A program made the translations under genes and the position numbers. The notes under the pieces are model-generated. The model worked only from the letters and a program-made list of their open reading frames with translations, ran no database searches and was not told where the DNA came from. DNA of 64,000 bases from Dehalococcoidia bacterium. GTDB taxonomy: Bacteria > Chloroflexota > Dehalococcoidia > DSTF01 > RBG-16-68-14. Below are positions 3,731-46,994 of the stretch, piece by piece (the first letter of the stretch is position 1; each line of letters starts with the position of its first letter). The stretch lies in NCBI GenBank assembly GCA_040902195.1, contig JBBDXS010000019.1, positions 213,969 to 277,968 on the forward strand, written 5' to 3'.

Positions 3731-3924
3731 GTGAGCACCATCGGGTCGGCGTAGCCGCGTCGGCCCCTTTGTCATCTTGCAGATGACGTTCCGCGGCTGT
3801 TCGCTGGCGAAGGCGGCAGTTCGCTCAACAATCGAAATCTAAACGACTAATGCGGTTCCCGGCCGGGAGGCAGCTTCGAGTCTGTATGGCAGCGCTTTGG
3901 GCTCATGAGAACCAGGAGGCTTAG

Positions 3925-16603: not shown

Positions 16604-16770
16604 CACTACAGATTCCAATCGTTGGCGGGGCTAGTAGAATGGCGGAGCTAGATCGCCTTATTTGTCCGCATCCACCTCGTACGGACCGTCAACCAGCCTA
16701 TACACGATCATGTACACCTGAGCGTTTCAGTTGTCAAGTTATCGTACGTTTACAGTTTTGTTAGAAATAG

Positions 16771-19221
16771 TCAGTCCGCGAGCGCCGGTTGCTCCTGCAA
16801 GGAAATCACGTGTATCTGCTGATCGGCCCACACGAGAAGCGACGGCAGGAGCAGGAGCGTTGTGAGCAGCGCAATGCCGACGTCCATCGCGGTCACGATG
16901 CCGAAGCTCTCGAGAAGCGGGAAGCCCGAAAACGCGAGGACGCCGAAGCCGCCGACCATTGTCAGCCCGGACGCCATAATCGCCCGCCCGATGCGTTGGT
17001 TCGTATCATCGATCGCCTCGCGTGGCGTGCGGCCGCGTCCTCGTTCTTCGAGATAGCGCCCCATTAACAGCACCGAAAACTCGACGCTGATCGCGATCAC
17101 GAGCGGCCCCGATAGCGCCGTGAGCGGGTTGATCTCGATGTTGAACAGATAGATGAATGTCGACGCCGCGCTGACCGCGATCACAACCGGGAAGAGAACC
17201 AGTAGCGTCCTTGCCAGACTTCGGTACACGATCAGAAACCAGGCGAACTTCACCGCGAGCGCCAGGTAGACCATGAGCGACCGGTTCGCGCTCAGGGCGT
17301 TCACCGTCTCGATCCCGATCACAGCCAGTCCGGCAGGCCGAACGCGAACGCCGGCCGGTGCGTCTAAGTCCGCTGCGATCTGGTCCGTCAGCCGCTCGCG
17401 CTCCTTTAGCGACACGTCGCCGATCGCGAAAATGATGTTCGCATGCTTACGGTCCTCGCTTACGAACGATCCCTTGAGCGATTCCGGCATCGTCGGGAGC
17501 ACCGCGTTCGCATCCGACTGCACCGGCGTCGCGCGCACGACCGAGTTCAGCGCCGACGCGATGCTGCCTGAGGTGACGATGTCGTGCGGATGGTTGTCGA
17601 TCGCGCGTTGCTGGAAGCCGGCCATCCAAGCGAGCATCTCGTCGCTCGTCACGTCGTCCGCATCGACGAGCAGGTTCAGCTCGGCCGATGAGCCGGCGGC
17701 GTCGCGGATCGTGAAGAGGTCCTGCAGGATAGGGCTGTCCTGCGGCACCCAGCGCTCCGGGTCGGTCTGCACGGTCACCCGGTGGTCGACCCAGAAGCCG
17801 GCTCCGATCAGCAGCAGACCAATCAAGATCCCTGGCAGCACGCGCGCATCGGCAGGGGAGGCGACTGTGCGCACCACGCGCTCGATCGGCAGGCGGCTCT
17901 TGCCAGAAGCGAAGCGCTCGGTAACGCCGCGATCACGGCAGTACAGCACGCTGCCCATGAACACGATTGATGCGATCAGGATCAGCACCGAGCCGACCGA
18001 CAGCATCGAACCGAAGTCCTGCACCATCGGCACTGCGGAGATCTGCAGCACCATGAAGCCACTGCTCGCCGCAATGACGGCGATCGTCAGCGGCGGCCCC
18101 AGGTGGGTCAACGTCTCGCTCAGAGCGGCATGTGCGTTCCCTGAGCGTTCGATCTCCTCTTCGTAGCGGCTGTGCACCTGGATCGCGAAGTCAACGCCGA
18201 GGCCGATCAGGACGGGCAGGGCGGAGATCGTCACCATCGTAAGCGGGATGCCCAGGTAGCCGATCAATCCGAACGCCCACACAGTGCTCATCAGCACGGC
18301 GCCCAGCGATAGTAGGCGCCACCGTGCGCGGAACATGACCGCGAGGACGATGGTCATCACACCCACCGCCAGCGCGCCCATCACGAGCACGCTGCCGCGC
18401 ATCGTTTCGTTGATCTCCGACAGCAGTACGGCAGGGCCCGAAGGCGTCACGGTGACGTTCTCGAAGTTACGCGAGTGGACGATGTCGACGACGTCCTGCG
18501 CCGCTGCCGACTGGTCGTCGAGCGAGAGGTTGCCGTTCAGCCGCACGACCATCAGCGCCGTCTTCTTGTTCATGAGGACGCCCTTCAGCTCCGGGCGGAC
18601 GTCGCCGTGCTCGTCGAACAGCACAAAGTCTACGAACTTCGGGTTGTCCAACGACAGCTCGCCCGCCTCCGCCAGCCGTCCTCCGTCGATGGCGTTGCGC
18701 TCGTTGATCGGGTCTGACGCGGCGTCAGCCGCTGCTGCGGCAGCGGCCTCTTGCTCCGCCGGCGTTGCTCCCGCGGCTGCGGCCTCCGCGCGCGCTTCCG
18801 CCGCGGCTTGCTCGCGCACCCGCTCGATCACCCCACCGACGAGGCTCGCCGCGGTCGGGATCGAGTCGCGGAAGTACGACGCTACCAGGAGAGGGCTGAT
18901 GATCGCGTGGTACTTGCCCGTCGCTCCCAGCTCGCGGTCGAGCGCGGCCATCTCCTCCATGTTGTGCGCGCTGAACAGATCGCGGATGTCGTTCGCCTGG
19001 AAGAGGACGAGCATCGGTTCGCCACCGAAAAGGCGCTGGTACTCCAAGTTGTCCTTGTAGATCTGCGTGTTGGGCGAAATGAGCGTGTCCTGGCTCGTCT
19101 TGAACTCGAGCCGCGTGATTCCGAAGCCGAGGGCAATTGTCACGACGCCGGAGATCGCGAGTAGCCAGACATACCGGCGCGCGATCAGCGTTGCGCAGCC
19201 CGCGAAGAGCGCCTGCACCAT
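16771..19221 (-). CDS. MMPL/RND superfamily membrane transporter
   Basis: 817 aa; two 6-TM bundles with periplasmic loops, MMPL-like. ATG at 19221 preceded by GGAGG at 6 nt. Ala-rich low-complexity segment in a loop. Confidence 0.82.
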   Translation of the reverse strand: MVQALFAGCATLIARRYVWLLAISGVVTIALGFGITRLEFKTSQDTLISPNTQIYKDNLEYQRLFGGEPMLVLFQANDIRDLFSAHNMEEMAALDRELGATGKYHAIISPLLVASYFRDSIPTAASLVGGVIERVREQAAAEARAEAAAAGATPAEQEAAAAAAADAASDPINERNAIDGGRLAEAGELSLDNPKFVDFVLFDEHGDVRPELKGVLMNKKTALMVVRLNGNLSLDDQSAAAQDVVDIVHSRNFENVTVTPSGPAVLLSEINETMRGSVLVMGALAVGVMTIVLAVMFRARWRLLSLGAVLMSTVWAFGLIGYLGIPLTMVTISALPVLIGLGVDFAIQVHSRYEEEIERSGNAHAALSETLTHLGPPLTIAVIAASSGFMVLQISAVPMVQDFGSMLSVGSVLILIASIVFMGSVLYCRDRGVTERFASGKSRLPIERVVRTVASPADARVLPGILIGLLLIGAGFWVDHRVTVQTDPERWVPQDSPILQDLFTIRDAAGSSAELNLLVDADDVTSDEMLAWMAGFQQRAIDNHPHDIVTSGSIASALNSVVRATPVQSDANAVLPTMPESLKGSFVSEDRKHANIIFAIGDVSLKERERLTDQIAADLDAPAGVRVRPAGLAVIGIETVNALSANRSLMVYLALAVKFAWFLIVYRSLARTLLVLFPVVIAVSAASTFIYLFNIEINPLTALSGPLVIAISVEFSVLLMGRYLEERGRGRTPREAIDDTNQRIGRAIMASGLTMVGGFGVLAFSGFPLLESFGIVTAMDVGIALLTTLLLLPSLLVWADQQIHVISLQEQPALAD

Positions 19222-19237
19222 CCCCACCCTCCGACGG

Positions 19238-20350
19238 TTAACCGGACGCTGCCGTATGCAGCGCCCCCGCAGCTTCCCCGAAGCCTCTCACTAGCTCTGA
19301 CATCACGTCATCGACCGAGCGGACGCGGTTCATGCTGCCGACGATCTGGCCCACCGGCGACGTTACCAGCTCGCGCGCGCCTTCGCTCTCATCCGCGAAG
19401 CGATGCATGCGGCTCATTGCATCCGCGTTCAGAAGGAACTGTAGCGGCATGGGCAGCGCGCCCGGCGACTCGACGCCGTCCCAGGCGTCCGTCCAGGGCG
19501 TGCGCAGCAGCCGGGCCGTCTTGCCGGTCATCGCCCGGCTGCGGACGGTGTCGCTGGAACCCGCGTGCAGGAGTTTCTCGATCACGGCGGGAGGCGTGTC
19601 GCTCTCTTCTGTCGTCAGCCAGATCGATCCCGTCCACGCCGCCTCCGCTCCCAGCGCGAGCGCGGCCGCGACCTGCCGCCCTTCACCGATGCCGCCTGCC
19701 GCCGCGACCGGAACTGGATGCACCGCGTCGACAACTTGTGGGACGAGCACCATCGTGCTCACCGCGCCGGTGTGGCCGCCCGCCTCCGTCCCGACGGCCA
19801 CGATCATGTCGCAGCCCGCCTCGACGTGGCGTTTCGCGTGTTCCGGCGTGCCGGCCAGCGCCGCGACGAGCGCGCCCCGTCGATGCGCTTCCTCGACCGT
19901 CGCGCGCGGCGGCGGGCCGAGCGCGCTCGCGAGCAGCTTGATCGGGTGCGCGAACGCGATCTCGGCCTGGCGCGTCGCGTTCTCGAGCGTCCAGCCCAGC
20001 AGCCCTTCCGTCGCCGATTCGCCCTCCGGCAAGGCCGGGACGTTGTAGCGCCGAAGAACGTCCTGCACCCACTGTCGGTGGCCCTCCGGGATCATCGCTT
20101 CGAGATCGATCTTCTCCGCGCCGGCCGCCTTCTCGACCGCGGGCACGACGATATCGACGCCGTAGGGCTTGCCATCGATGTGCTCGTCAATCCAGGCCAG
20201 CTCATTCTCGAGCTCGTCGGCGGAGTAGCCGACGGCGCCGAATACGCCCAGCCCGCCGCACCTGCTCACAGCGGCGACGACGTCGCGGCTGTGGCTGAAC
20301 GCGAAGATCGGGTACTCGATGCTAAACAGTTCGCAGACACGGGTTCGCAT
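19238..20350 (-). CDS. nitronate monooxygenase / 2-nitropropane dioxygenase family FMN oxidoreductase
   Basis: 371 aa from the ATG at 20350 (MRTRVCELFSIEYPIFAFSHS); NMO-like TIM barrel. Confidence 0.8.
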   Translation of the reverse strand: MRTRVCELFSIEYPIFAFSHSRDVVAAVSRCGGLGVFGAVGYSADELENELAWIDEHIDGKPYGVDIVVPAVEKAAGAEKIDLEAMIPEGHRQWVQDVLRRYNVPALPEGESATEGLLGWTLENATRQAEIAFAHPIKLLASALGPPPRATVEEAHRRGALVAALAGTPEHAKRHVEAGCDMIVAVGTEAGGHTGAVSTMVLVPQVVDAVHPVPVAAAGGIGEGRQVAAALALGAEAAWTGSIWLTTEESDTPPAVIEKLLHAGSSDTVRSRAMTGKTARLLRTPWTDAWDGVESPGALPMPLQFLLNADAMSRMHRFADESEGARELVTSPVGQIVGSMNRVRSVDDVMSELVRGFGEAAGALHTAASG

Positions 20351-20363
20351 ATTCGATCTCACC

Positions 20364-21572
20364 TCAGGCTGGAGTGATGCGCATCGGGATGTGCTTGACG
20401 CCGTTGATGAAGTTCGAGCGCAGCCGCGCAACGGGACCAGTCAGCTCGAACGAGGCGATGCTCTTCAGCAGCTCCTCGAAGATCAGGTTGATCTCCAGCC
20501 GGGCCAGGCTGTAGCCCAGGCAGAAGTGCGCGCCGCCGCCGCCGAACGTGATGTGCGGGTTCGGATTGCGCCGCACATCGAAGCGGTTGCTGTCCGGAAA
20601 CACCTCTTCGTCGCGGTTGCCAGAGATGTACCACAACGTAACGGGATCGCCCGCAGCAAGTTGCTGTCCGCGCAGCTCGATGTCTTGCGTCAGCGTCCGC
20701 CGGAAGTACATTACGGGCGTCACCCAGCGCAGCATCTCTTCGACCGTCGTCGGCAGTAGCGATGGGTCCCTCTGCACGTCCGAGAGCTGGTCGCCATGCT
20801 CGATCAGCGCCAGCATGCCGCCCGAGATGAGATTGCGCGTCGTCTCGTTGCCCGCAACGGCGAGCAACAAAAAGAAGACGTTGAACTCGATCGGCGTAAG
20901 CTTCTCGCCGTCGATCTCGGCCTCCATCAGCACGCTCACGAGATCATCTTGCGGCACGTCGCGACGCACCTGCGCGAGCTTGTCGGCGTACGCGAACATA
21001 TTGATCGCGGCCTGTTGCGCGTCGTCTTGCGTCAGGCCGTACTCGGGGTCTTCCACGCCGACCATGCGGTTGCTCCACTCGAAGATCGAGTGCCTGTCTT
21101 CCTGCGGGATGCCAATCATCTCGGCGATGACGCGCAGCGGCAGCTCGGCCGCGACCTCCGTCACGAAGTCGAACTCGCGCTTCTCCAGGGCGTCGCGCAC
21201 GATCGATTGCGCGATGCCGCGCACGTGCTGCTCCATCTGCCGGATCATCTTCGGCGTGAACCCCATGTTCACCAGCGTCCGAAGCTTCGTGTGCTGGGGC
21301 GGGTCCATGTTCAGCATCATCAGCTCGTAGCCGCCCTGGTTGATGTCGTCGCCGAGGATCACGCCCTTCGCGGACGAGAAGATGTCCGAGTGCTGGGAGG
21401 CATACACGATGTCGGCGTGCTTCGTGAGCACCCAGAACGGGCGGCCCCGCTCGGACTCTTGGCGGTAGACCGGCGCCTCCCGCCGCAGCCGCGCGAACGC
21501 CTCGTGCGGTACGCCGCCGACGAACGTGTCCGGGCTATCGAGTCGCGGGTTTGTGATCGTAGCGCTGGTCAT
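20364..21572 (-). CDS. cytochrome P450
   Basis: C-terminal FGGGGAHFCLG heme-cysteine loop. ATG at 21572 preceded by AGGAGG. Confidence 0.9.
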   Translation of the reverse strand: MTSATITNPRLDSPDTFVGGVPHEAFARLRREAPVYRQESERGRPFWVLTKHADIVYASQHSDIFSSAKGVILGDDINQGGYELMMLNMDPPQHTKLRTLVNMGFTPKMIRQMEQHVRGIAQSIVRDALEKREFDFVTEVAAELPLRVIAEMIGIPQEDRHSIFEWSNRMVGVEDPEYGLTQDDAQQAAINMFAYADKLAQVRRDVPQDDLVSVLMEAEIDGEKLTPIEFNVFFLLLAVAGNETTRNLISGGMLALIEHGDQLSDVQRDPSLLPTTVEEMLRWVTPVMYFRRTLTQDIELRGQQLAAGDPVTLWYISGNRDEEVFPDSNRFDVRRNPNPHITFGGGGAHFCLGYSLARLEINLIFEELLKSIASFELTGPVARLRSNFINGVKHIPMRITPA

Positions 21573-21582
21573 CGTGTCCCTC

Positions 21583-22779
21583 CTAGTACGAGCGTGGCAG
21601 GCCCAGGTCCTGCTCCGCAACGAAGTTCAGGATCATCTCGCGGCTCACCGGCGCCGTCTTCAGGATGCGCGCGCCGTTCCAGAGCTGGATCAGCCCGTAC
21701 TCGTCCGAGAAGCCGTTGCCGCCGTGCACCTCGATCGCGACGTCGGCCGCCCGGATCGCCAGGTCGGCCGCGAGGAACTTCGCCATGTTCGCCAGGCTCC
21801 CTACCTGCGCCGGATCGAGTCCCTGATCGTAGGCCCAGGCCGCCTTGTACGTCATCAGCTTCGCGGCTTCGAGGTTGATCTTCACCTCAGCCATCGGGTG
21901 CGCGATGCCCTGGTACGTGCCGATCGGTTTGTCGCCGAAGACGACGCGCTGCTTCGAGTACTCGACAGCCTTCGCGAGCGCTTGCTGCGCCATCCCCGTG
22001 CAGATGGCGCCCGTAAGGATGCGCTCCGGGTTGAGCGAGTTGAACATGACGAACGCGCCCTGGTCCTCCTCGCCCACGAGGTTGCACGCCGGCACTTCGA
22101 CGTCATCGAAGAAGAGCTGGAACTGCTTGTGCCCGTCGCTCGCCGGGATCGGGATCGGCTGCATCGAGATGCCCTTCGACTTCGTGTCGACGAGGAACAG
22201 CGATATGCCGAAGACTTTCGGCTTGCCTTGCTCCTTCAGCTCCTCGACCGACGTCGTCCGCGCGACGAGGAGCATGTAGTCGGACTGGTCGACGCCGGTA
22301 ATGAAGACTTTCTGTCCGTTGATCCGGTACGAGTCGCCGTTGCGCTTCGCGGACGTCTCGAGCCGGAACGTGTTCGTCCCGGCGTTCGGCTCCGTTACGG
22401 CGAAACAGAGCACCGTGGAGCCATCGACGACCGACGGCAGGATGCGGCGCTTCACGTCCTCCGACGCGTGCTTCACGAGGCACGCGCTGTCCATCGCCGT
22501 CACGAGCAGCAACCCGGGCGAGAACCCCTGCGCGACAATCTCCTCGAAGCCGTACGCGAGCGGGAGCAGCCCCGCGCCTGTGCCGCCGTACTCCGGGGGG
22601 ACGAGGCAGCCCATCAGCCCCACGTCCGCGAAGTCCTTCCACAGCTCTTCCGGGAAGACCCCCTCGGTGTTCATGATGCGCCGGATCTCTTGCCGTCTCG
22701 GCACGTATTTCTGCAGCATCGAACGCACGCTGTCGCGGATGAGACGTTCTTCTTCGGGCGGCGTGAAATCGAGTGACAT
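21583..22779 (-). CDS. acyl-CoA dehydrogenase
   Basis: 398 aa; ACAD fold with VTEPNAGTN, GQKVFITG and a C-terminal catalytic region. Confidence 0.9.
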   Translation of the reverse strand: MSLDFTPPEEERLIRDSVRSMLQKYVPRRQEIRRIMNTEGVFPEELWKDFADVGLMGCLVPPEYGGTGAGLLPLAYGFEEIVAQGFSPGLLLVTAMDSACLVKHASEDVKRRILPSVVDGSTVLCFAVTEPNAGTNTFRLETSAKRNGDSYRINGQKVFITGVDQSDYMLLVARTTSVEELKEQGKPKVFGISLFLVDTKSKGISMQPIPIPASDGHKQFQLFFDDVEVPACNLVGEEDQGAFVMFNSLNPERILTGAICTGMAQQALAKAVEYSKQRVVFGDKPIGTYQGIAHPMAEVKINLEAAKLMTYKAAWAYDQGLDPAQVGSLANMAKFLAADLAIRAADVAIEVHGGNGFSDEYGLIQLWNGARILKTAPVSREMILNFVAEQDLGLPRSY

Positions 22780-22781
22780 CG

Positions 22782-23603
22782 CTATCGTCCTTTGAACTGC
22801 GGCGTCCGCTTCTCTTTGAAGGCTCTCGGCCCTTCACGCGCGTCCTCCGTCGCGTAGACCTCCATGCCGATCCGGAACTCGATCTCGAGCGCCTGCTCTT
22901 CGGGCAACGCCTCGGTCTCCTGTACCGACTGCTTTACTTTCCCGACGGCGACCGGCCCGTTGGCGGCGATGCGCGCGGCGACCTCGCGCGCCACCGCTAG
23001 CGTTTCGCCGTCCGGCACGACGCGACCGATCAGGCCAATTCGGAGCGCCTCGTGCGCGGGGTAGTGGTCGCCAGTGAGAAGCATCTCCATCGCCTTGGTG
23101 TAGGAGATCTGACGCCTCAACCGCACGGTTGAGCCGCCCTGCGGGAACAGGCCCCAGCGCACCTCGGAGATGCCGAAGGTCGCACTCTCTCCGGCGATCC
23201 GGATGTCGGTCGTGAGCAGGACCTCGCTGCCGCCCGCGATACACGGGCCCTCGATCGCCGCGATGAGCGGCTTCGAGAGCCGGTAGCCGCGCAGCAGCCC
23301 CTGGAAGATCACGTTCGGGTCAGCGCGACAGCGCGCCTCGAACTCGTCCTCCGCCGGCACGTTCTTCATCATCCGCGTGACGAGCTGATCGAGGTCGGCG
23401 CCCGCGCAGAACGTCCCCTCCGCGCCCGTGAGGATCACGACACGCACGGCGTCGTCTTCGTTCGCCATCGTCCAGGCGTCCGCCATGCGACAGAGCATCT
23501 CGGGATTGAGCGCGTTTCTCGCGTACGGGCGGTTCATCGTCAGCGTGAGCACCGCGCCGTCGCGGTCGATGAGCAGGGCAGGGGCCTTCATCTCGGTTGC
23601 CAT
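22782..23603 (-). CDS. enoyl-CoA hydratase/isomerase (crotonase family)
   Basis: 273 aa; ILTGAEGTFCAGADL oxyanion-hole motif. Confidence 0.9.
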   Translation of the reverse strand: MATEMKAPALLIDRDGAVLTLTMNRPYARNALNPEMLCRMADAWTMANEDDAVRVVILTGAEGTFCAGADLDQLVTRMMKNVPAEDEFEARCRADPNVIFQGLLRGYRLSKPLIAAIEGPCIAGGSEVLLTTDIRIAGESATFGISEVRWGLFPQGGSTVRLRRQISYTKAMEMLLTGDHYPAHEALRIGLIGRVVPDGETLAVAREVAARIAANGPVAVGKVKQSVQETEALPEEQALEIEFRIGMEVYATEDAREGPRAFKEKRTPQFKGR

Positions 23604-23605
23604 CG

Positions 23606-25219
23606 TTACGCTGTCTCTCCTACCGCTTGCTCGGCGCTCAGCGCCTGCTCTTTCGCCCAGCGATAGTCCGCTTTACCGCTCGGCTGCCGCATCATCTCGT
23701 CGACGACGCACAGCAGTCGAGGGACCTTGTAGCCCGCGATGTGTTGTCGCGCGTGCGCATCGACGTCCTCGAGCGTGAGCGCCTGCCCGTCGCGCAGTTG
23801 CACAACAGCCGCGACCCGCTCGCCCCAGCGCTCGTCCGGCAAGCCGACGACGACGGCGTCGAACACGGCGGGGTGCTTTCTCAGCGCCGCCTCGACTTCT
23901 TCCGGGAAGACCTTCTCGCCGCCACTGTTGATGCACTGCGAGCCGCGGCCCAGCAGCGTGATCGCGCCGTCCGCCTCGATTATTGCCATGTCGCCGGGGA
24001 TCACCCAGCGCGTCCCGTCGATGTCGAGGAACGTCTTCGCCGTCTTCTCAGGGTCCTTGTAGTAGCCGAGCGGAATGTGCCCTCGACGCGCCAGCATGCC
24101 GGCGATTCCCGAGCCGGGCGCGATCGGCCGGTGGTGTTCGTCCAGTACCGCCGTGTGATCGTGTCCTTGGAAGCGCGGCCCCTGCGCTCCCGGGTCGCGC
24201 TCGACGCCGTGGCCCTGATTACCGCCCTCGCTGCCGCCAAACGTATCGAGCAGGATCGTGTTCGGCAGCTTGGCGCGCAGTTGCTCCTTCACGGCGTCCG
24301 AGAACGTCGCGCCGCCGGAGCCGATCACCATCAGCGACGACGTGTCGTAGCTTTCGTCGAGCGCTTCCGCCAGCGGCCGCCCGATCGCGTCGCCGACGAT
24401 CGAGAGCGCCTGCACCTTCTCGTCCTCCACAAGACGCCACACCTGCGCGGGATCAAATCGTTTTCCCGGCGCGAGGATCGTCTTGCCGCCCGCGTAGAGG
24501 AAGATCATTGCTGCCCACTGCGCGGCGCCGTGCATCAGCGGCGCGACCGGGAACGACGTCACGTCCGCGCTGCTCTTCGCGTTCTCGGCGACTTGCTCCG
24601 GCCGCTCCGGCGGCGCGCCGTACGGGTTGCCGCCCGAGAGCGCTGCGAAGAACAAGTCCTCGTGGCGCCACATCACGCCCTTGGGCATGCCGGTCGTGCC
24701 GCCCGTGTACAGGATATAGAGGTCGTCCGCCGATCGCGGCGGGAAATCGCGTGTCGATGGCGACGCCGCGATCGCTTCCTCGTAGTCGCTCGATCCGATC
24801 GTGGAGCAGTCGGCGTCGCTGCCGTCCTCGACGGCGAGGAACGTACGCAGCTTCGGTAAGTCGCTGGCGATCGCGGCGATGCGCGGCGCGAACTCCCGGT
24901 GGTGGATGACGCCGGCGAGGTCCGCGTTGTCGAACAGGTAGCGCAGCTCTTCTTCGACGTAGCGATAGTTGATGTTGATCGGCACCGCGCGGATCTTGTA
25001 CGCCGCCAGCGATGCCTCCATGTACTCTGAGCCGTTATACAGGTAGAGACCGATGTGGTCTCCCTTGCCGAGCCCTTGCGCGCGCAGCCAGTGCGCGAGG
25101 CGCGTCGCGCGCTCGTCGAGCTGCGCGAACGTCAGGCGGCGGTTGCCGCACACGATCGCCTCGCGCTCCGGCACGGCGTCCGCGACGTCTTCGAACAGGT
25201 CGGCCAGGTTGAACTCCAT
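23606..25219 (-). CDS. AMP-dependent acyl-CoA synthetase/ligase (FadD-like)
   Basis: 537 aa; YTGGTTGMPKGV AMP-binding motif; AGGAGG Shine-Dalgarno. Confidence 0.9.
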   Translation of the reverse strand: MEFNLADLFEDVADAVPEREAIVCGNRRLTFAQLDERATRLAHWLRAQGLGKGDHIGLYLYNGSEYMEASLAAYKIRAVPININYRYVEEELRYLFDNADLAGVIHHREFAPRIAAIASDLPKLRTFLAVEDGSDADCSTIGSSDYEEAIAASPSTRDFPPRSADDLYILYTGGTTGMPKGVMWRHEDLFFAALSGGNPYGAPPERPEQVAENAKSSADVTSFPVAPLMHGAAQWAAMIFLYAGGKTILAPGKRFDPAQVWRLVEDEKVQALSIVGDAIGRPLAEALDESYDTSSLMVIGSGGATFSDAVKEQLRAKLPNTILLDTFGGSEGGNQGHGVERDPGAQGPRFQGHDHTAVLDEHHRPIAPGSGIAGMLARRGHIPLGYYKDPEKTAKTFLDIDGTRWVIPGDMAIIEADGAITLLGRGSQCINSGGEKVFPEEVEAALRKHPAVFDAVVVGLPDERWGERVAAVVQLRDGQALTLEDVDAHARQHIAGYKVPRLLCVVDEMMRQPSGKADYRWAKEQALSAEQAVGETA

Positions 25220-25228
25220 GCCCGCCTC

Positions 25229-26386
25229 CTACGGCTTCTCGCTCCCGACGATCCACATCGAGAAGAACTGTGACCCGCCCCCGTACGCGTGCCCGAGCGC
25301 CTTGCGCGCGCCGTCGATCTGGTGCTCGCCCGCGAGGCCGCGCACTTGCAACGCCGCCTCGGCGAAACGGAGCATCCCGGACGCGCCGATCGGGTTCGAT
25401 GACAGCACGCCGCCCGACGCGTTTACCGGCAGCTCGCCGTCGAGCGCCGTCGCGCCGCCGAGTGTCATCTTCCAGCCTTCGCCTTCTTCCGCGAAGCCGA
25501 GGTTCTCGAGCCACATCGGCTCGAACCAGCTAAACGGCACGTAGATCTCCGCCGCGTCGATCTCCCCGCGCGGGTTCTCGATGCCGGCTTCCGCATAGAC
25601 GGCGGCGGCGCACTCGCGTCCGGCGCGCGGGCTCACTTCGTCGCGCCCGGGGAACATGATCGGCTCGCTGCGCATCGCGGTCGCGTGTACCCACGCCGGC
25701 GCCTTCGCTGCGCGGTCGCCGCCCGCTTCGTTCGTGAGCACCATCGCGCAGGCGCCGTCGGATGAGGGACACGTTTCGTGGAATCGAACGGGCTCCCACA
25801 ACATCGGCGACTCCGCGATCGTGTCGTAGGTCAGCGACTCGTCGCGGATGTGCGCGTAGGGGTTCTTCAACGCGTTCTGCCGGTCCTTCAGCGCGACGCG
25901 TATGCCAACGTCGTCCGGCGCGTTCGACCGCTCGATGTACGCGCGGATGTGCGGCGCGAAGTATCCGCCCGCGCCCGCGACGACGGGCGGCTGGAACGGG
26001 ATCTTCGGCGTAAGCGCCCACATCGCATTGCTCTCCGACTGTTTCTCGAACGCGACGGTTAGCACGCGCTCGTGGATGCCGCCTTGTATCAGGCTCGACG
26101 CGGCGATCGCCGTCGAACCGCCGACGCTGCCCGCCGTGTGCACACGCATCATCGGTTTGCCGCTCGCCCCCAGCGCGTCGGCGAGGTAGAGCTCGGGCAT
26201 CATCACGCCCTCGAACAGGTCGGGCGCCTTGCCGATCACGACAGCGTCGATGTCGCCCCACGACATGTCCGCGTCCTCGAGCGCGCGCGACGCCGCCTCG
26301 CGCACAAGTCCGGCGATCGAAACGTCGTCGCGCCGCGAGGCGTGCTTTGTCTGTCCGATGCCCACCACGGCGCAGCGCTCCGCCAT
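25229..26386 (-). CDS. SCP-x-type thiolase-like protein (lipid-transfer-protein family)
   Basis: Start at internal ATG 26386 (MAERCAVVGIGQTKH...), which forms an ATGA overlap with the upstream stop; nsLTP-thiolase-like. Confidence 0.82.
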   Translation of the reverse strand: MAERCAVVGIGQTKHASRRDDVSIAGLVREAASRALEDADMSWGDIDAVVIGKAPDLFEGVMMPELYLADALGASGKPMMRVHTAGSVGGSTAIAASSLIQGGIHERVLTVAFEKQSESNAMWALTPKIPFQPPVVAGAGGYFAPHIRAYIERSNAPDDVGIRVALKDRQNALKNPYAHIRDESLTYDTIAESPMLWEPVRFHETCPSSDGACAMVLTNEAGGDRAAKAPAWVHATAMRSEPIMFPGRDEVSPRAGRECAAAVYAEAGIENPRGEIDAAEIYVPFSWFEPMWLENLGFAEEGEGWKMTLGGATALDGELPVNASGGVLSSNPIGASGMLRFAEAALQVRGLAGEHQIDGARKALGHAYGGGSQFFSMWIVGSEKP

Positions 26387-27405
26387 CACGCCGCCTCCAT
26401 CACGCAGACGAGGTTCTGTTGCAGGCACGGCCCCGCGCTCGCGTGGGCCAGCGCGCGCTTCGCCTCGCCGCTCATGATGCGCGAGGCCGCCTCACCGATG
26501 CGGATCAGCCCGGTGACCATCACGGGATCGGCCGCCAGCGCGCCGCCCGATGGGTTGATCGCCACGCCCGCGCCGAGGCCCATCGCTTCGCGCAAGATCA
26601 GCTCCTGGTGTGTGTACGACGCGTGCAGCTCCGCGACATCGATCGGTCCGTTGCCCGCTCCGACGTGGCGCGCCGCCAGCGCCGCTGATGTCGAGCGCGC
26701 TAGGTCGCGCAAGCCAAGCCCCTGCGGCTCGATGCGGTGGTCGATGCCCCGGATCCACGCCGGCCGCTCGCATATCTCGCGTGCGAGATTGCCCGCCGCC
26801 AGCACGACCGCGGCCGCCCCGTCTGAGACGGGTGGGCAGTCGTGCTCGCGCAAGGGCGAGGCGACGTACGGTAGGGTGAGCAGCTCGTCGATTGTCGCGT
26901 CGCGCCGGCCGCGCGCGGCCACGGCGGCCATATCGCGCTCGGTGTAGTCCGAGCCCTCCAGCAGCGCGCGCGCCTGGAGCGCGGCGATCGCGTGCGTGTC
27001 CGGCCACAACGGCGCGACGTAGTAGGGATCGAGCTGGAGCGTCAGCACGTCGCGGATGCTGCCGAGCGAAGACTTGCCGAACGCGTAGACCAGCGCGGAA
27101 TCGATCTCGTCGTGCTGCATCCGCACCCACGCCTCGTAGAGCGCCCACGCACCGTCCTGCTCCACGTGCGACTCCTGCTTCGGCGGCCACAGCCCGACGG
27201 CGTCCAGCGCCGTCACGAAGGCGAACGGCTGCCCGGCCAGATAGTCGCACGAGCCGGACATCACGAAGCCGATCTCTTGGATCGACAACCCCGCGCGGTC
27301 GAGCGCCTCGCGAACGACCGGGGCGAGCATCTCCACCTCGTTCCGTTCGGCGTCAGGAGAGAAGCTCGGCGCCTGCGCGAACGCGACAACGGCGACTTCA
27401 CGCAT
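26386..27405 (-). CDS. second SCP-x-type thiolase-like protein (paralogous partner subunit)
   Basis: Start at ATG 27405 (MREVAVVAFAQAPSF...), 8 nt inside the end of the upstream gene; thiolase-like fold. Confidence 0.78.
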   Translation of the reverse strand: MREVAVVAFAQAPSFSPDAERNEVEMLAPVVREALDRAGLSIQEIGFVMSGSCDYLAGQPFAFVTALDAVGLWPPKQESHVEQDGAWALYEAWVRMQHDEIDSALVYAFGKSSLGSIRDVLTLQLDPYYVAPLWPDTHAIAALQARALLEGSDYTERDMAAVAARGRRDATIDELLTLPYVASPLREHDCPPVSDGAAAVVLAAGNLAREICERPAWIRGIDHRIEPQGLGLRDLARSTSAALAARHVGAGNGPIDVAELHASYTHQELILREAMGLGAGVAINPSGGALAADPVMVTGLIRIGEAASRIMSGEAKRALAHASAGPCLQQNLVCVMEAA

Positions 27406-27853
27406 GGTCGCCCCCGACGGGCCGGAAATAGCGCACGCTCTCCATCGACGGCCGCCGCTCGTTTTCCCAGACCGGCTCAACGCGCAGACCCGTGCGCACT
27501 TCGTTGGCGGAGATCTCCTGCACGAGGTGGAACAGCGCGACATCCGCGCCGTCCAGCATGATCGACGCGCAGGCGTAGGGCGGCTCGACCTGCTGGCCGG
27601 CGAACGGCACGTTCACGATGCAGAACATCGTGACGGTGCCCTGCGGTCCAACGTCGACCTCCTCGTCCGTCGCGATGCCGCAGATCGCGCACGAGCCACG
27701 CCCCGGCACATAGACGCCCTGACACTTTCCGCACCGCTGCCCGACAAAGCGCCGCTCCATCAGCCCGCGCAAAAATCGCGATTGCGCCCGGCCTGCGCTG
27801 AACGTGTACTCCAGTCGTACCGGCGAGACCACACCCAGGACCGGATCGCTCAC
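27398..27853 (-). CDS. DUF35 OB-fold/zinc-ribbon protein (ChsH2-C-terminal-like thiolase partner)
   Basis: 151 aa from the GTG at 27853, which overlaps the upstream stop (GTGA) and is preceded by GGAGGAGG. Rubredoxin-like CGKC...CAIC plus an OB region. Confidence 0.75.
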   Translation of the reverse strand: MSDPVLGVVSPVRLEYTFSAGRAQSRFLRGLMERRFVGQRCGKCQGVYVPGRGSCAICGIATDEEVDVGPQGTVTMFCIVNVPFAGQQVEPPYACASIMLDGADVALFHLVQEISANEVRTGLRVEPVWENERRPSMESVRYFRPVGGDHA

Positions 27854-28314
27854 GACTCCTCCTCCGGCTCGAAGCACTCGAGGTCGCTTAGGTCGCCCTT
27901 GCGCTCGGCTCGCCAGCGAGCCCGCACGCGCATGCCGGTCGCCATCCGTGACTCGTCGCTGGCATCGACGGCCTGCAGCATCGCGGTGTCCGCGCCGTCG
28001 AGCTTGATCAGCGCCCAGGCAAACGGCCTGTCCAGCGGCTGGTGCGGCCGAGGCTCGCTCGCCCACGTCCACGTCGTCACGACGCCGCTCTGACCCACCT
28101 CGACGAGCTCGTCCAGCCCGTCGCCCGTGTCCGGGTCGTATTCCAGCGGCGGCACGATCACCCGGCCGGCGTTCGTCTTGATGCCGAGCAGCTTGCCGGC
28201 GCGCAGCCCTGCGAGAAAACGCCCGACGACCGGCCCGACGCTGCGTGTGTACGCGTACTCGAGGACGTGCGGCGCCGTCAGCGCGGCCTCGGCGGCGACG
28301 GGCGTTTCGCTCAC
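27850..28314 (-). CDS. DUF35-like OB-fold protein (cysteine-less paralog)
   Basis: 154 aa from the GTG at 28314 overlapping the amidohydrolase stop (GTGA). DUF35-like C-terminal OB region, no zinc-ribbon cysteines. Confidence 0.65.
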   Translation of the reverse strand: MSETPVAAEAALTAPHVLEYAYTRSVGPVVGRFLAGLRAGKLLGIKTNAGRVIVPPLEYDPDTGDGLDELVEVGQSGVVTTWTWASEPRPHQPLDRPFAWALIKLDGADTAMLQAVDASDESRMATGMRVRARWRAERKGDLSDLECFEPEEES

Positions 28315-29129
28315 GCTTCGTTCTCTTTGCTGAACAGCAATCGCTGCGCGTTTGCGTAGAGGAACTTGTCGAGCACGCCCTCGCGCAGATCGAGTGCCTC
28401 CGCCTCCGGCACGCACCGCTCGAACGACAGTACCGGGTGGTCCGACGCGAACAGGATCTTGTCCTGCCCGCGCGTGTTCATGAAGTGGATCAGCTCGGGC
28501 GGGAAGTATTTCGGCGCATACGCCGAAGTCTGCAGATAAAGGTTGCGGTACTTGATCATCAGCCGTATCGCGACGTCCCACCACGGGTCCGCTCCGTGCG
28601 CCATCACGATCTTCAGCTCTGGGAAGAAGTAACAGACCTCATCAAGGTGCATCGGGTCCTGCATCTTGCCAGGCACGGGCGGCCCCGGCAGCCCGGTGTT
28701 GATCGCGATCGGCAGGTCCATCTCGATGCATTTCGCGTAGATCGGGTAGTATGCGCGGTCGTCCGGCGGCAGGCCCACCATGAACGGCACGGCACGCGCC
28801 AGCACGACCGGATGCTCGCGTACCAGCCGCTCGAGCGCGCGCACAGCTTTCATGCCCTGCTTCGGCTCGACCTGCACGCTCAGCGCGAAGCGCTCCGGGT
28901 GCTTCTCCGGAAACGACAGCACGTGCGGCGAGGGCGCGTCCGCCGTCGTCGTGAGGACCGCCTTCTCCATGCCGACGCGGTCCATCGCCTCGATCAGCTC
29001 CGGGATCTCGATGTTGCGAAACGTCTCGCTCGCGCGCTTGAAGTAGTCTTCAGCGACGCGCACCAGCCAGTCGGGCGGCGTCGACTCGCCCATATTCACG
29101 TTGACGAAGGTATCGATGCAGCGTGGCAT
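28311..29129 (-). CDS. amidohydrolase-2 (ACMSD/LigJ-like metal-dependent TIM-barrel hydrolase/decarboxylase)
   Basis: 272 aa from the ATG at 29129 (MPRCIDTFVNVNMGE...), 2 nt after the Rieske stop. Amidohydrolase_2-like HxH...D pattern. Confidence 0.75.
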   Translation of the reverse strand: MPRCIDTFVNVNMGESTPPDWLVRVAEDYFKRASETFRNIEIPELIEAMDRVGMEKAVLTTTADAPSPHVLSFPEKHPERFALSVQVEPKQGMKAVRALERLVREHPVVLARAVPFMVGLPPDDRAYYPIYAKCIEMDLPIAINTGLPGPPVPGKMQDPMHLDEVCYFFPELKIVMAHGADPWWDVAIRLMIKYRNLYLQTSAYAPKYFPPELIHFMNTRGQDKILFASDHPVLSFERCVPEAEALDLREGVLDKFLYANAQRLLFSKENEA

Positions 29130-29131
29130 GG

Positions 29132-30130
29132 CTATGCGTCCTGCGGCGGATCGATGTAGAACTGCCTGCACCAGCGCCGGAAGATGCCGATTGGACCATC
29201 GCCGTCGCAGAGCATCGGGCGCTCGACCATCTGCTTATGCTCCCAGATCGGGATGTCCTGCCCGAGCTGCCGCTCGATCTCCGCAATGAACGCCTTGCTC
29301 ACGTTCTCCGTCAGCGATTCGTTGCCGACCTTCTTCGCCATGAACGAGAAGCGCACATCGACGTACTCGCCGTCGATCGGCGTCACGGACGAGACGAGCA
29401 GCGTCTCGACGATGCCGGTGAACCGCACCAGCCCGAAGCCGAAGCCGTGCGAATCGGAAGCGATCTGCCCCTCGATCTCGCCCTGCGGCGTCGAGTACTG
29501 AACCGGCGATCGCACGCGCAAGATGTGCCCGTCGATCTCCGCGCGCGTTGCCGGCATCTCCGGCGTGCCGTGGACGTACTTGAAATGCGCTGCATCGACC
29601 GCGTTCTCCGCCATCTCCTGGTTGTGCGTGCGTATCCTCCAGCGCCCGCGGTGGTACGGTGTCCAGTTGTCGGAGCCATACTCAGGCACGACGGGCAGTT
29701 CGTAACGCGGCGGGTCGCCATGCATGTGGTGATGCACCATGATCAGGCCGTTGATCTCGTTCACCGGCCATGCGCCCAGCTTCGCAAGCGGCGGGATTTT
29801 GGTCGCGTAGGGCACTTCGACGCACGTCCCCTCGCCGTCGAAACGCCAGGCGTGGAACGGACAGCGGATCGTTGATCCTTCGATCGTGCCGCCGTACCCG
29901 AGATGCGCGCCGAGGTGCGGGCAGAACGCGTCCAGGACGCGCGCGGTGCCGTCGTCGCCGCGAAACATCACGAGCTGCCGCCCGAAGTACTGCAGCGGTA
30001 CCACGTCGCCCTGCGTTAGCTCGTCGCTGTAGGCAACTTGGAACCAGCCGTTGGGGTAGGGCGGTACCGGGAATCGATAGTCCGGCGTCACTTCCGCGCC
30101 GTTCGTTGTCGGCTCCGCAAGTTGCGTCAT
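29132..30130 (-). CDS. Rieske [2Fe-2S] non-heme iron oxygenase, KshA-like
   Basis: CPHLGAHL...CPFHAW Rieske motif; NQEMAENAVDAAHFKYVHG matches the KshA-type N..EN..D..H....H iron site. ATGA overlap with the tetR stop. Confidence 0.85.
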   Translation of the reverse strand: MTQLAEPTTNGAEVTPDYRFPVPPYPNGWFQVAYSDELTQGDVVPLQYFGRQLVMFRGDDGTARVLDAFCPHLGAHLGYGGTIEGSTIRCPFHAWRFDGEGTCVEVPYATKIPPLAKLGAWPVNEINGLIMVHHHMHGDPPRYELPVVPEYGSDNWTPYHRGRWRIRTHNQEMAENAVDAAHFKYVHGTPEMPATRAEIDGHILRVRSPVQYSTPQGEIEGQIASDSHGFGFGLVRFTGIVETLLVSSVTPIDGEYVDVRFSFMAKKVGNESLTENVSKAFIAEIERQLGQDIPIWEHKQMVERPMLCDGDGPIGIFRRWCRQFYIDPPQDA

Positions 30131-30807
30131 GGCGTACCTCCCTCTGCGCCCTCAGTGCCGGCGCCAAGCCGGAAGTCCTCCAAGGGGCCGAACTGGCGAA
30201 AGATCTGATCGACAAGGTAATCGCGCCGCTGGATCAGCGCGTCGATCGTGAACGGGTCCGAGTGGCGCAGCCGCTCCAGCAGCGGCCGGTGGCAGAAGTA
30301 GCCGATGAGCTGCACGTGGATGTCGTGGATGAAGAGCGCCGGATCGAGGCGCCGGATCAGGCCTGCATCCATCGCCCGCGTGAGCGTTTCGACGGCCGGC
30401 ACGTAGATCGGCTCGACGAAGCGGCTCAGGTACGCCTCGGGATCGGTCGACTCCAGCAGCTCCCGCTCGAGGAGGCGCGCCAGCGCAATGTGCTCGACGA
30501 AGAACGCCTGGATCTGATCGAGCAGGTACGCGACACGCTCCTTCGAGAACTCACCGCCCAGGAACTCGCGCATGACCTCGGAGATGCGGCCGAGCGCCTC
30601 GTCCAGGACGGCCTCGTGCAGCGCCTCCTTGCTCGGGAAGTGGTAGAGCAGGGTCGTCTTGTGCGTCTTCGCCGCGTCCGCGATGTCCTGGACCGTCACG
30701 CCCGAGAAGCCCCGCTCCGCGAACAGGAGCGTCCCGGCATCGATCACGGCGCGCCGCCTATCAGCGCGCGTCACCGACCGGCGGGTATGAGTAGGTTTTG
30801 CTACCAT
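30127..30807 (-). CDS. TetR family transcriptional regulator (first gene of the catabolic operon)
   Basis: 226 aa; N-terminal HTH (RRAVIDAGTLLFAERGFSGVTVQDIADAA). Confidence 0.9.
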   Translation of the reverse strand: MVAKPTHTRRSVTRADRRRAVIDAGTLLFAERGFSGVTVQDIADAAKTHKTTLLYHFPSKEALHEAVLDEALGRISEVMREFLGGEFSKERVAYLLDQIQAFFVEHIALARLLERELLESTDPEAYLSRFVEPIYVPAVETLTRAMDAGLIRRLDPALFIHDIHVQLIGYFCHRPLLERLRHSDPFTIDALIQRRDYLVDQIFRQFGPLEDFRLGAGTEGAEGGTP

Positions 30808-30949
30808 TTAGTCGGATATTGCTCCCAACTGGACGATTTGTCAAACGGGCCTAACGGCGTTGGCAGACGTTGAGCGCCAAGTAGGGCCATTCTCGGTGAA
30901 ATGCCGCAAGACCTGCGACACGGGAGATTAGCGTTCTGGAGCTAGCGGG

Positions 30950-31157
30950 AGCCATTCGACCCCGAAGGCCAGGCCTCGCCCCGGAGGCCAGGCCTTCAGG
31001 CTGGCGGAGCTCACGCAGGGATGGAAGACTAGGAGGTCCCGGTCTGTAGCGTTACGCCATGGCCCGAAGGCCAGGCTTTTCATAGAGTCGCCTCAGGCGA
31101 CAGCCTGGCGGAGCCCGCCTCAAGCGACAGCATGGCGCTGGCGCAGGTCTCGCGCGT
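30950..31157. repeat. degenerate ~103-bp tandem duplication in the tetR upstream region
   Basis: CCCGAAGGCCAGGC at ~30961 and ~31063; CTGGCGGAGC at ~31001 and ~31105; CCTCA(G/A)GCGACAGC twice; GTCGCC-TCA-GGCGAC hairpin. Confidence 0.5.
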
Positions 31158-32215: not shown

Positions 32216-32240
32216 ATGCGTCCTCCCGAAGTCATGGAGT

Positions 32241-32257
32241 TGGATTGGATTGGATTG
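32241..32257. repeat. (GGATT)3 microsatellite between the LLM start and tRNA-Pro
   Basis: ggattggattggattgg read directly. Confidence 0.6.
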
Positions 32258-32270
32258 GAGAGGGGAGAGT

Positions 32271-32347
32271 TGGTCGGGGCGACTGGACTCGAACCAGCGA
32301 CCTCCTGACCCCCAGTCAGGTGCCCTACCAAGCTGGGCCACGCCCCG
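32271..32347 (-). tRNA. tRNA-Pro(GGG): tRNA-Pro (anticodon GGG), CCA encoded
   Basis: Reverse complement folds as CGGGGCG/CGCCCCG acceptor, GCCC/GGGC D-stem, CCUGA/UCAGG anticodon stem with loop CUGGGGG (U33, G37), GCUGG-UUCGAGU-CCAGU T-arm, discriminator A, CCA. Confidence 0.88.
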
Positions 32348-32421
32348 GACCTTGGCTCCAGGGTATCCGCGCGCCGTGCTGTCCGTCAAACGATGCCGCC
32401 AGCTCTCATCACACGCTCGCG

Positions 32422-46919: not shown

Positions 46920-46994
<75 letters not shown>

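Follow-up and report, generated by a model that had tools for sequence, protein, structure and literature searches.

A compact Dehalococcoidia operon with a predicted side-chain cleavage cassette related to the mycobacterial Rv3521-Ltp4-Ltp3 proteins

Background

Actinobacteria that degrade cholesterol have a set of genes under control of the regulator KstR. A part of this regulon is the FadD19/EchA19/Rv3521/Ltp4/Ltp3 module, which is the closest described relative of the gene set considered here. We analyzed a stretch of 64,000 nucleotides (hereafter, the window) from a metagenome-assembled genome (MAG) of a Dehalococcoidia bacterium (assembly GCA_040902195.1, contig JBBDXS010000019.1, positions 213,969 to 277,968). 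At positions 16771-30807 of the window, thirteen genes form a compact putative operon, in which all five functions of the actinobacterial module are present. It is highly probable that this is a single catabolic operon with a coenzyme A (CoA)-dependent aldolytic logic. To judge from the relatives of its products, its substrate is very probably a sterol-like or isoprenoid lipid.

In Mycobacterium tuberculosis the genes of the module stand, with further genes such as Rv3520c (an F420-type oxidoreductase, just before Rv3521) between them, in the order fadD19 (Rv3515c), echA19 (Rv3516), Rv3521, ltp4 (Rv3522), and ltp3 (Rv3523) (PMC6429209). The gene fadD19 is required for beta-sitosterol and dispensable for cholesterol in M. 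smegmatis (PMC6273163). In Rhodococcus rhodochrous, fadD19, ltp3, and ltp4 are needed for C24-branched sterols only, according to Wilbrink et al. (2011/2012) as cited in PMC6273163 and PMC6593523. Phytosterol induces ltp3, ltp4, echA19, and fadD19 69-98-fold (PMC6593523), and an “aldol-lyase” role is ascribed to Ltp3/Ltp4 in the same two papers, where Wilbrink et al. (2012) is cited for it. The sterol genetics and the induction by phytosterol thus suggest that normal beta-oxidation is blocked at the alkyl-substituted carbon.

To our knowledge, demonstrations of steroid catabolism are limited to Actinobacteria and Proteobacteria. For the Chloroflexi, a sterol route initiated by CYP125 was proposed from SAR202 genomes (PMC5395668). 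A metagenome survey reported hits in this phylum and no complete pathway, and noted that experimental evidence is missing (PMC5790920). A targeted search for literature on Chloroflexota and steroid degradation returned nothing relevant, and we found no description of this operon or of KshA-like genes of Dehalococcoidia in the searchable literature.

Results

According to the listing of open reading frames (ORFs) of the window, thirteen ORFs, all on the minus strand, fill positions 16771-30807. The GC content at third codon positions (GC3) is 0.83-0.89 in all thirteen frames, and the long antisense ORFs over the operon are shadows of the high GC content (66% for the genome). Start codons were set by GGAGG motifs resembling ribosome-binding sites, i.e., by sequence features alone. 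With these starts, neighbouring genes either overlap by 1-8 nt or are 2-16 nt apart. The junctions are -4 (ATGA), +2, -4 (GTGA), -4 (GTGA), -8, and -1 nt from tetR to the Ltp3-like gene and +9, +2, +2, +10, +13, and +16 nt from there to the transporter gene. A preliminary description of the locus had reported thirteen packed genes on one strand, running from 30807 to 16771 with gaps of at most 16 nt and many ATGA/GTGA overlaps; the ORF list and the refined junctions agree with it. The genes on either side are unrelated; spacers of 352 nt (upstream) and 152 nt (downstream) separate them from the operon. A terminator scan of the minus strand gave nothing convincing, and inside the operon it found just two weak hairpins on that strand.

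Pfam domains were assigned to all products: TetR_N; Rieske with KshA_C; Amidohydro_2; two OB_ChsH2_C (DUF35) proteins, the second with a zinc ribbon; two thiolase-fold proteins; AMP-binding; ECH; ACAD; P450; NMO; and MMPL. These assignments include every family that the preliminary description had named.

The order of the genes recurs in other assemblies. In another Dehalococcoidia MAG (GCA_040902505.1, locus L001) the whole order from TetR to NMO is found, with protein identities of 55-79%. The first seven genes recur in a JGI contig (locus L002). A metagenome scan with the transporter protein gave one relative (73% identity), in locus L087, which shows linkage and not distribution; the order there is the NMO gene, the transporter gene, a membrane-protein gene, and then the same GGDEF gene as in the window. 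Because the order recurs in L001, L002, and L087, the arrangement is, as far as gene order can tell, not due to chance. On the same grounds the transporter gene is to be regarded as a stable member of the operon in this lineage, since its linkage to the NMO gene recurs in L087.

The Rieske protein, the acyl-CoA dehydrogenase (ACAD), and the ligase of the operon are identical to the NCBI entries MEX2159837.1, MEX2159829.1, and MEX2159831.1 (“MAG: Dehalococcoidia bacterium”), and MAGs labelled Dehalococcoidia or Chloroflexota are also the source of near homologs of the Rieske protein. Therefore, the host of the operon is a member of Chloroflexota (a Dehalococcoidia MAG) rather than an actinobacterium. 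This taxonomic label was given by the depositors and is backed by several independent MAGs with the same operon.

The regions around kshA in Mycobacterium botniense (L086) and in Mycolicibacterium phlei (L088) served as reference loci for the core genes. The order in both agrees with the published listing for M. tuberculosis, namely fadD19, echA19, ..., Rv3520c, Rv3521, ltp4, ltp3, ..., kshA (PMC6429209). The Ltp3-like protein of the window (25229-26386, 385 aa), a predicted retro-aldolase of the thiolase fold, is 66-68% identical to mycobacterial Ltp3, and the Ltp4-like protein (26386-27405, 339 aa), with a degenerate thiolase fold, is 51-53% identical to mycobacterial Ltp4. Two small predicted scaffold proteins are encoded before them. 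DUF35a (27850-28314, 154 aa), which has an OB fold of the ChsH2_C type (Pfam OB_ChsH2_C, 48 bits), is 49-50% identical to the N-terminal half of the fused Rv3521 ortholog. DUF35b (27398-27853, 151 aa), which has a zinc ribbon and an OB fold (Pfam zf-ChsH2 and OB_ChsH2_C), is 41-43% identical to its C-terminal half. Thus the order Rv3521-ltp4-ltp3 is colinear with DUF35-DUF35-ltp4-ltp3 of the window, at 41-68% identity, with the difference that Rv3521 is one fused protein in mycobacteria (a fusion also seen in the Streptomyces locus L031 described below), whereas two genes are present here. The acyl/steroid-CoA ligase (23606-25219, 537 aa; Pfam AMP-binding) is 45% identical to FadD19 of M. phlei over 336 aligned residues, fadD19 being partial in that locus. 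The enoyl-CoA hydratase (22782-23603, 273 aa) is 56% identical to EchA19 of M. phlei over the full length. The “FadD-like ligase” and the “crotonase” of the preliminary description can thus be specified as FadD19-like and EchA19-like.

The family models of NCBIfam lead to the same assignment. The Ltp3-like protein scores 681 bits with PRK08313 (cutoff 514), the Ltp4-like protein 512 bits with PRK07937 (cutoff 419), the ligase 764 bits with PRK07798 (cutoff 543, the next-best model giving 333), and the hydratase 364 bits with PRK07799 (cutoff 316); the products of fadD19, echA19, ltp4, and ltp3 of M. phlei pass the same four models. Among proteins of known structure, the best matches of the hydratase are EchA19 of M. 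tuberculosis (6wyi, 280 bits) and of M. marinum (4f47, 272 bits), while ordinary crotonases give at most 170 bits.

The active-site residues of the two thiolase-fold proteins were compared in an alignment that included SCP2-thiolase (6hsj) and BbsB (7pxp). The Ltp3-like protein has Gly86 in the place of the nucleophilic Cys, YVPF for HDCF, and SNP for GHP, and the same residues are found in Ltp3 of M. botniense. In the Ltp4-like protein the Cys is replaced by Glu, HDCF by HASY, and GHP by ADP, which parallels mycobacterial Ltp4. Because the catalytic Cys, HDCF, and GHP are replaced in both, neither protein can, to judge from these residues, be a conventional thiolase. The predicted loss of thiolase activity fits the role of aldol-lyase that the literature gives to Ltp3/Ltp4. 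By sequence, gene order, and active-site pattern, we assign the core of the operon to the fadD19-echA19-Rv3521-ltp4-ltp3 module.

The preliminary description had compared this core with Ltp2-ChsH2(DUF35). In the Ltp2-ChsH2 aldolase of Thermomonospora curvata (6ok1) the principle is the same, i.e., a thiolase fold lacking the Cys is combined with DUF35 for retro-aldol cleavage of a tertiary 3-hydroxyacyl-CoA. However, the window has two different thiolase-fold subunits, two free-standing DUF35 proteins, and no MaoC hydratase partner. Since Ltp2 (6ok1) scores just 59 bits, we rejected the identification with Ltp2-ChsH2. The two DUF35 and two thiolase-fold proteins were thus recognized correctly, and their counterpart is Rv3521-Ltp4-Ltp3.

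The cytochrome P450 of the operon (20364-21572, 402 aa) is of the CYP125/CYP124 type and can be aligned with these enzymes over its full length. Its best match in the PDB is CYP125MRCA (8vxi; 507 bits, 58% identity over 397 residues), followed by CYP124A1 (354 bits, 48% identity), CYP125A1 of M. tuberculosis (about 329 bits), and CYP142 (252 bits), in agreement with the earlier comparison with CYP125. CYP125MRCA is a reconstructed ancestor of CYP125; it is about 54% identical to CYP125A1 of M. tuberculosis and hydroxylates the side-chain terminus in cholesterol and phytosterols as well as in vitamin D3 (PMC12100521). According to the same paper CYP125 is of actinobacterial origin, whereas the host of the P450 studied here is not an actinobacterium. 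No ferredoxin gene is adjacent to the P450 gene. By the nomenclature rule, P450s with more than 40% identity belong to one family, and the protein lies above this line for both CYP125MRCA and CYP124.

The ACAD (21583-22779, 398 aa) has all three Pfam domains of acyl-CoA dehydrogenases. Its NCBIfam matches are generic and each is under its cutoff, so by family models it is a generic three-domain enzyme encoded by a single gene. Its ortholog in L001 is 66% identical.

The Rieske non-heme-iron monooxygenase (29132-30130, 332 aa; Pfam Rieske 78.5 bits, KshA_C 139 bits) had been called KshA-like. Its best PDB matches are KshA5, KshA1, and KshA of M. tuberculosis (162-174 bits, 33% identity), and strong matches are to KshA enzymes only; models of aromatic-ring dioxygenases (NCBIfam) give less than 30 bits. 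With KshA (2zyl, 4qdc) the protein shares the Rieske and KshA_C domains and all ligands of the cluster and of the iron, namely CxH...CxxH and His, His, Asp. The likeness therefore holds for the fold, the domains, and the metal ligands. It does not reach the level of orthology, and the window contains no gene for a KshB-type reductase. A further difference from KshA is the pairing with an Amidohydro_2 protein. On these comparisons, the protein should not be called KshA.

The amidohydrolase gene (28311-29129, 272 aa; PF04909, 125.9 bits) follows the Rieske gene. The only real relative of its product in the PDB is the uncharacterised protein BB4693 (3irs, 69 bits), and no NCBIfam model matched it. 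Its N-terminus reads IDTFVNVN where the metal motif HxH (or ExH) is expected, and close homologs have ID[TC][FW]VN at this place. An ACMSD-like decarboxylase function was therefore rejected: because the HxH motif is absent, the likeness to ACMSD proposed earlier is limited to the level of the Pfam family. In Acidimicrobiia (loci L010, L039, L046, and L053) a distant Rieske protein (40-46% identity) is paired with an Amidohydro_2 protein (38-45%). These pairs are encoded on the strand opposite to the thiolase-fold genes, at a distance of a few kb, and the ASDHP motif is changed to AGYFP. The Rieske-amidohydrolase pair is thus a sub-module that recurs across phyla.

The NMO/FabK-family flavin mononucleotide (FMN) oxidoreductase (19238-20350, 370 aa; Pfam NMO 164.6 bits) has FabK enoyl-ACP reductases as its best PDB matches (about 129 bits).

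The last gene of the operon encodes an RND transporter (16771-19221, 816 aa; Pfam MMPL 162 bits, Sterol-sensing 45.9 bits). The protein passes the HAE3 model TIGR00921 (361 bits, cutoff 351.9) and fails the MmpL model TIGR00833 (177 bits, cutoff 874.7), so membership in the MmpL family was rejected. Of the “MMPL exporter/importer” named earlier, the Pfam domain remains, and the protein is a transporter of the HAE3 type. Like the lipid transporters HpnN and BstA and the MmpL proteins, it has an RND architecture with transmembrane domains of the MMPL and sterol-sensing-like types. However, its similarity to every characterised member is weak: 59 bits for the hopanoid transporter HpnN, its best PDB match, 52-55 bits for MmpL4/MmpL5, and 60 bits for BstA (sterols; cutoff 1400). 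Its position in a catabolic operon is another difference from these systems.

A gene for a membrane protein of 534 aa (15014-16618, minus strand) begins 152 nt downstream of the transporter gene and is a possible fourteenth gene of uncertain membership. No Pfam family was found for its product. Its counterpart after the transporter gene in L087 (2759-4375) is 65% identical. The AT-rich region upstream of the gene has a TTGACA of its own, which suggests separate transcription; there may also be a functional link with the pump.

The first gene of the operon encodes a TetR-family regulator (30127-30807, 226 aa; Pfam TetR_N 54.7 bits), orthologs of which (68-74% identity) lead the same operon in L001 and L002. 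A TTGACA (30844-30839) lies 31 nt before the ATG of tetR, which implies a short leader, and it is also found 29-37 nt before the ATG in L001 and L002. Since a consensus promoter scan found no canonical sigma-70 site, we only infer the putative promoter of the operon at 30808-30850 on the minus strand. Inverted-repeat scans upstream of tetR in the window and in L001, L002, and L003 revealed no shared palindrome of a TetR operator.

The intergenic region upstream of tetR also contains, at 30961-31076, three copies and one inverted copy of a GC-rich repeat able to form a hairpin (GCCTGGCCTTCGGG). The repeat has five matches in the window against 1.1 expected, and four of them are in this region. 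These repeats could act as a terminator of the upstream gene or as a binding site, or could form a small repeat element.

The distribution of the cassette was studied by a scan of one genome per species, queried with an alignment of Ltp3-like proteins. The counts below refer to the best 80 of more than 586 relatives, and a neighbouring gene was counted if its product had at least 40% identity. The Ltp3-like homologs in these 80 loci have 70-78% identity. Of these loci, 32 belong to Streptomyces, and further ones to other cultured actinomycetes (Actinomadura, Nonomuraea, Microbispora, and Planobispora among them); the others come from Acidimicrobiia, from MAGs of Myxococcota/“Deltaproteobacteria”, and from Binatia, Spirochaetales, Opitutales, and Chloroflexi. 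The block DUF35a-DUF35b-Ltp4-Ltp3 is nearly always complete (71-80 of 80 per gene, 76 for DUF35a), with gaps falling at contig ends. The FadD19-like ligase is present in 58 loci and the EchA19-like hydratase in 46. The other genes of the operon are much rarer: 11 loci have the Rieske protein, 10 the NMO protein (54-60% identity), 5 the amidohydrolase, and 3 the P450, and a TetR, ACAD, or RND pump of the window type was found in none of the 80.

The thirteen-gene composition was seen only in Dehalococcoidia. Given this distribution, the Dehalococcoidia lineage has added the P450, the ACAD, the Rieske/amidohydrolase pair, the NMO protein, the pump, and its own repressor to a widespread core.

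In Streptomyces sp. NBC_00984 (L031, 5390-17414) the cassette is found in a five-gene island, with fadD on the strand opposite to echA, the fused DUF35 gene, ltp4, and ltp3. This island is flanked by unrelated genes, namely genes of a polyketide cyclase and an O-methyltransferase and by a GH95 gene and a gene of a two-domain (geosmin-synthase-like) terpene synthase. A MAG labelled “delta proteobacterium” (L009, 7569-17133) has the order TetR-Rieske-DUF35-DUF35-Ltp4-Ltp3-FadD-FadD-ACAD-sulfotransferase. Sulfotransferase genes are also located just beyond kshA in the two mycobacterial reference loci (L086, 11697-12842; L088, 12485-13648). The presence of sulfotransferases by a Rieske-cassette cluster and by mycobacterial kshA may hint at sulfated sterol or lipid substrates.

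Discussion

The homologies described above are established by sequence comparison, and the chemistry below is what they would imply. One TetR-repressed operon would shorten a branched alkyl side chain by the mycobacterial/rhodococcal sterol route. The CYP125-type P450 would turn a terminal methyl group into a carboxylic acid, the FadD19-like ligase would form the CoA thioester, and the ACAD would put in a 2,3-double bond. The EchA19-like hydratase would then add water, converting the alkyl-branched carbon into a tertiary alcohol. Such an alcohol is not oxidisable to the 3-keto stage, hence the proposed retro-aldol C-C cleavage by the Ltp3-like/Ltp4-like complex, with propionyl- or acetyl-CoA and a ketone as products. 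The DUF35 pair would scaffold the two thiolase-fold subunits, by analogy with Ltp2-ChsH2, BbsAB, and archaeal thiolase complexes. The probable role of the NMO/FabK-type flavoenzyme is the reduction of an additional enoyl or dienoyl bond, e.g., one derived from delta-22 sterols, and that of the KshA-like Rieske oxygenase is hydroxylation of an unactivated carbon in the substrate or product. The HAE3 RND pump would transport the hydrophobic substrate, or else the product that is left over, across the membrane.

Whether the natural substrate is a sterol-type lipid appears evenly balanced; if a structure is to be named, a C24-alkylated phytosterol-like molecule is the most plausible candidate. The best characterised relatives of the set are steroid side-chain enzymes, not aromatic or plain fatty-acid ones, and for this reason the steroid-like interpretation put forward in the preliminary description stands. 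It stands for the side chain. Its ring half rests solely on a Rieske protein 33% identical to KshA.

A number of observations weigh against a steroid substrate. The Pfam survey of predicted genes did not find 3beta-hydroxysteroid dehydrogenase (3beta-HSD), cholesterol oxidase, KstD, KshB, HsaA-D, or Mce4 in the 64 kb, nor a ferredoxin or reductase for the P450 and the Rieske protein. The regulator had been described as a KstR-type TetR, and this was rejected: it scores 36 bits with the KstR equivalog model, the cutoff of which is 280, and the KstR operator TnnAACnnGTTnnA has no match in the window. The P450 is nearly as close (48%) to CYP124, a hydroxylase of methyl-branched lipids. The Rieske protein is only 32-33% identical to KshA of M. 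tuberculosis, M. botniense, and M. phlei; with 332 residues, it lacks the C-terminal part of M. tuberculosis KshA (386 residues). With the EchA19 equivalog model NF051848 the hydratase scores 352 bits against a cutoff of 400, while the M. phlei protein reaches 445. In L031, the one Streptomyces locus that was annotated in full, the island is without a P450 or any steroid gene, and by tblastn the remaining Streptomyces loci have the same fadD/echA/cassette layout; because these islands stand alone, the cassette is not tied to steroid degraders. Finally, we know of no reconstitution of the Ltp3/Ltp4 reaction in vitro.

Compared with the mycobacterial module, the window has one co-directional operon that also includes the P450, ACAD, Rieske, amidohydrolase, NMO, and RND genes, a non-KstR TetR regulator, and a Chloroflexota host. 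Since there is no KstR, no KstR box, and no ring or Mce4 gene within the 64 kb, the operon is not, on this evidence, a member of the KstR-regulated cholesterol cluster.

The main rival to a sterol substrate is the same chemistry applied to an acyclic or other isoprenoid lipid, which we regard as a possible, though rather unlikely, explanation. Phytanate/pristanate, hopanoid side chains, tails of carotenoids or quinones, and methyl-branched fatty acids are the candidates. The resemblance of the P450 to CYP124, an omega-hydroxylase of methyl-branched lipids in M. tuberculosis, would be expected under this explanation, as would the lack of ring-degradation genes in the window and the fact that the best structural relative of the pump is HpnN. 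The genomic context of the cassette points the same way: it is accompanied by fadD and echA, and by no other steroid genes nearby, in 31-32 of the 32 Streptomyces loci as well as in Myxococcota, Acidimicrobiia, and Binatia. On the other side, the genetic links of all characterised homologs of the core (FadD19, EchA19, Ltp3, and Ltp4) are to sterols only (PMC6273163, PMC6593523), the P450 has a higher identity to the CYP125 ancestor (58%) than to CYP124, and the KshA_C domain is known so far from steroid hydroxylases.

Another explanation is that the operon is an arm of a complete 9,10-seco pathway. In this case the Rieske protein would be a true 3-ketosteroid 9alpha-hydroxylase, and kshB, kstD, and hsa genes would lie in other parts of the 591 kb contig or of the genome. 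The KshA fold and metal ligands of the Rieske protein are in favour of it, as is the distance of 3-4 kb between kshA and ltp3 in mycobacteria. KshA of M. tuberculosis, in the 2011 work of Capyk et al., is said to prefer CoA-thioester side-chain intermediates. We nevertheless consider a complete pathway improbable in view of the low identity to KshA and of the lack of ring genes within the 64 kb. Moreover, the Rieske-cassette clusters in MAGs of Myxococcota and Acidimicrobiia adjoin genes of an amidohydrolase, a ligase, an ACAD, and a sulfotransferase, not ring genes. In the metagenome survey cited above, not one member of the Chloroflexi had all ten pathway proteins, and hsaC was not found in the phylum (PMC5790920).

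Two further explanations are much weaker. RND/MMPL proteins are typically exporters, and the pump is encoded by the last co-transcribed gene, in a linkage kept in L087, so that the enzymes might tailor an endogenous lipid for export in the manner of MmpL; this is very improbable, since genes for a polyketide or fatty-acid synthase, an acyltransferase, or a glycosyltransferase are lacking in the operon, its ligase, ACAD, hydratase, and C-C lyase are a degradative set of the beta-oxidation type, and the pump fails the MmpL model, passes HAE3, and is absent from the 80 other cassette loci. Equally hard to credit is side-chain cleavage of aromatic or alicyclic acids in the style of BbsAB or of feruloyl-CoA hydratase/lyase, with no relation to sterols or isoprenoids: a DUF35 protein with a thiolase-fold subunit is also the architecture of BbsAB (benzoylsuccinyl-CoA thiolase) and PhlABC, and Amidohydro_2 proteins are common in aromatic pathways, but BbsB gives no more than 95-99 bits, while the Ltp3 family model reaches 681 bits, the aromatic-ring dioxygenase models fail for the Rieske protein, and the amidohydrolase lacks the metal motif of aromatic decarboxylases.

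For the degradation of a sterol-like or isoprenoid side chain, one can propose a combination of two more specific ideas, which we put forward tentatively and consider unlikely to be right as a whole. Firstly, the branched side chain alone may be burnt, in the form of the propionyl- or acetyl-CoA that the Ltp3/Ltp4 retro-aldolase would set free, and, for want of a ring pathway, the hydroxylated polycyclic remainder may be expelled through the HAE3 pump. If such “cropping” takes place, Dehalococcoidia would be a biological source of persistent alicyclic matter rich in carboxyl groups and oxygen. Secondly, DUF35-DUF35-Ltp4-Ltp3 may be a horizontally mobile “tertiary-alcohol C-C lyase” for branched lipids in general that is not specific for steroids. 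The cassette spans at least four phyla, including Streptomyces, Acidimicrobiia, Myxococcota, and Chloroflexota, at 70-78% identity.

The operon is a self-contained, cloneable gene set of Dehalococcoidia in which a P450, a ligase, a dehydrogenase, a hydratase, and a C-C lyase are physically linked, and this makes the hypothesis of sterol degradation in Chloroflexi experimentally approachable. The Rv3521-Ltp4-Ltp3 cassette is an unusually conserved cross-phylum unit. Its spread bears on the attack of soil and sediment bacteria on phytosterols and other branched lipids, as well as on engineered cleavage of sterol side chains for the production of steroid synthons.

Other features of the window

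The rest of the window encodes housekeeping functions and metabolism unrelated to the operon. It includes genes of Ku/LigD, a GT20 gene behind a c-di-AMP riboswitch, BacA, a galactose operon, a GGDEF-HD protein, a luciferase-like monooxygenase, tRNA-Pro, UbiA, Mfd, pairs of acyl-CoA synthetase (ADP-forming) genes, and P-type ATPases.

The c-di-AMP riboswitch (RF00379, 103.5 bits) is located at 3590-3726 on the plus strand, about 200 nt upstream of the GT20 gene (3925-5478, plus strand), the product of which resembles trehalose-6-phosphate synthase. This suggests control of osmolyte synthesis by c-di-AMP. The riboswitch overlaps the 5' extension of a mechanically listed ORF at 2456-3838 (minus strand).

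Upstream of tetR, tRNA-Pro(GGG) (32271-32347, minus strand) sits within a mechanically listed ORF, 31160-32788, and therefore the luciferase-like monooxygenase must be much shorter than that ORF; its Pfam match begins only at residue 205.

Two gene sets of the ADP-forming acyl-CoA synthetase type (CoA_binding_2/Succ_CoA_lig and ATP-grasp_5) are found at 44590-46906 and 52176-53579, both on the minus strand. They adjoin genes of a short-chain dehydrogenase/reductase (SDR) and a zinc alcohol dehydrogenase and add to the CoA-dependent metabolism of acids encoded in the window, with a spacing that gives no operon link. The second tRNA of the window is Gly(GCC), at 46920-46994 on the plus strand.

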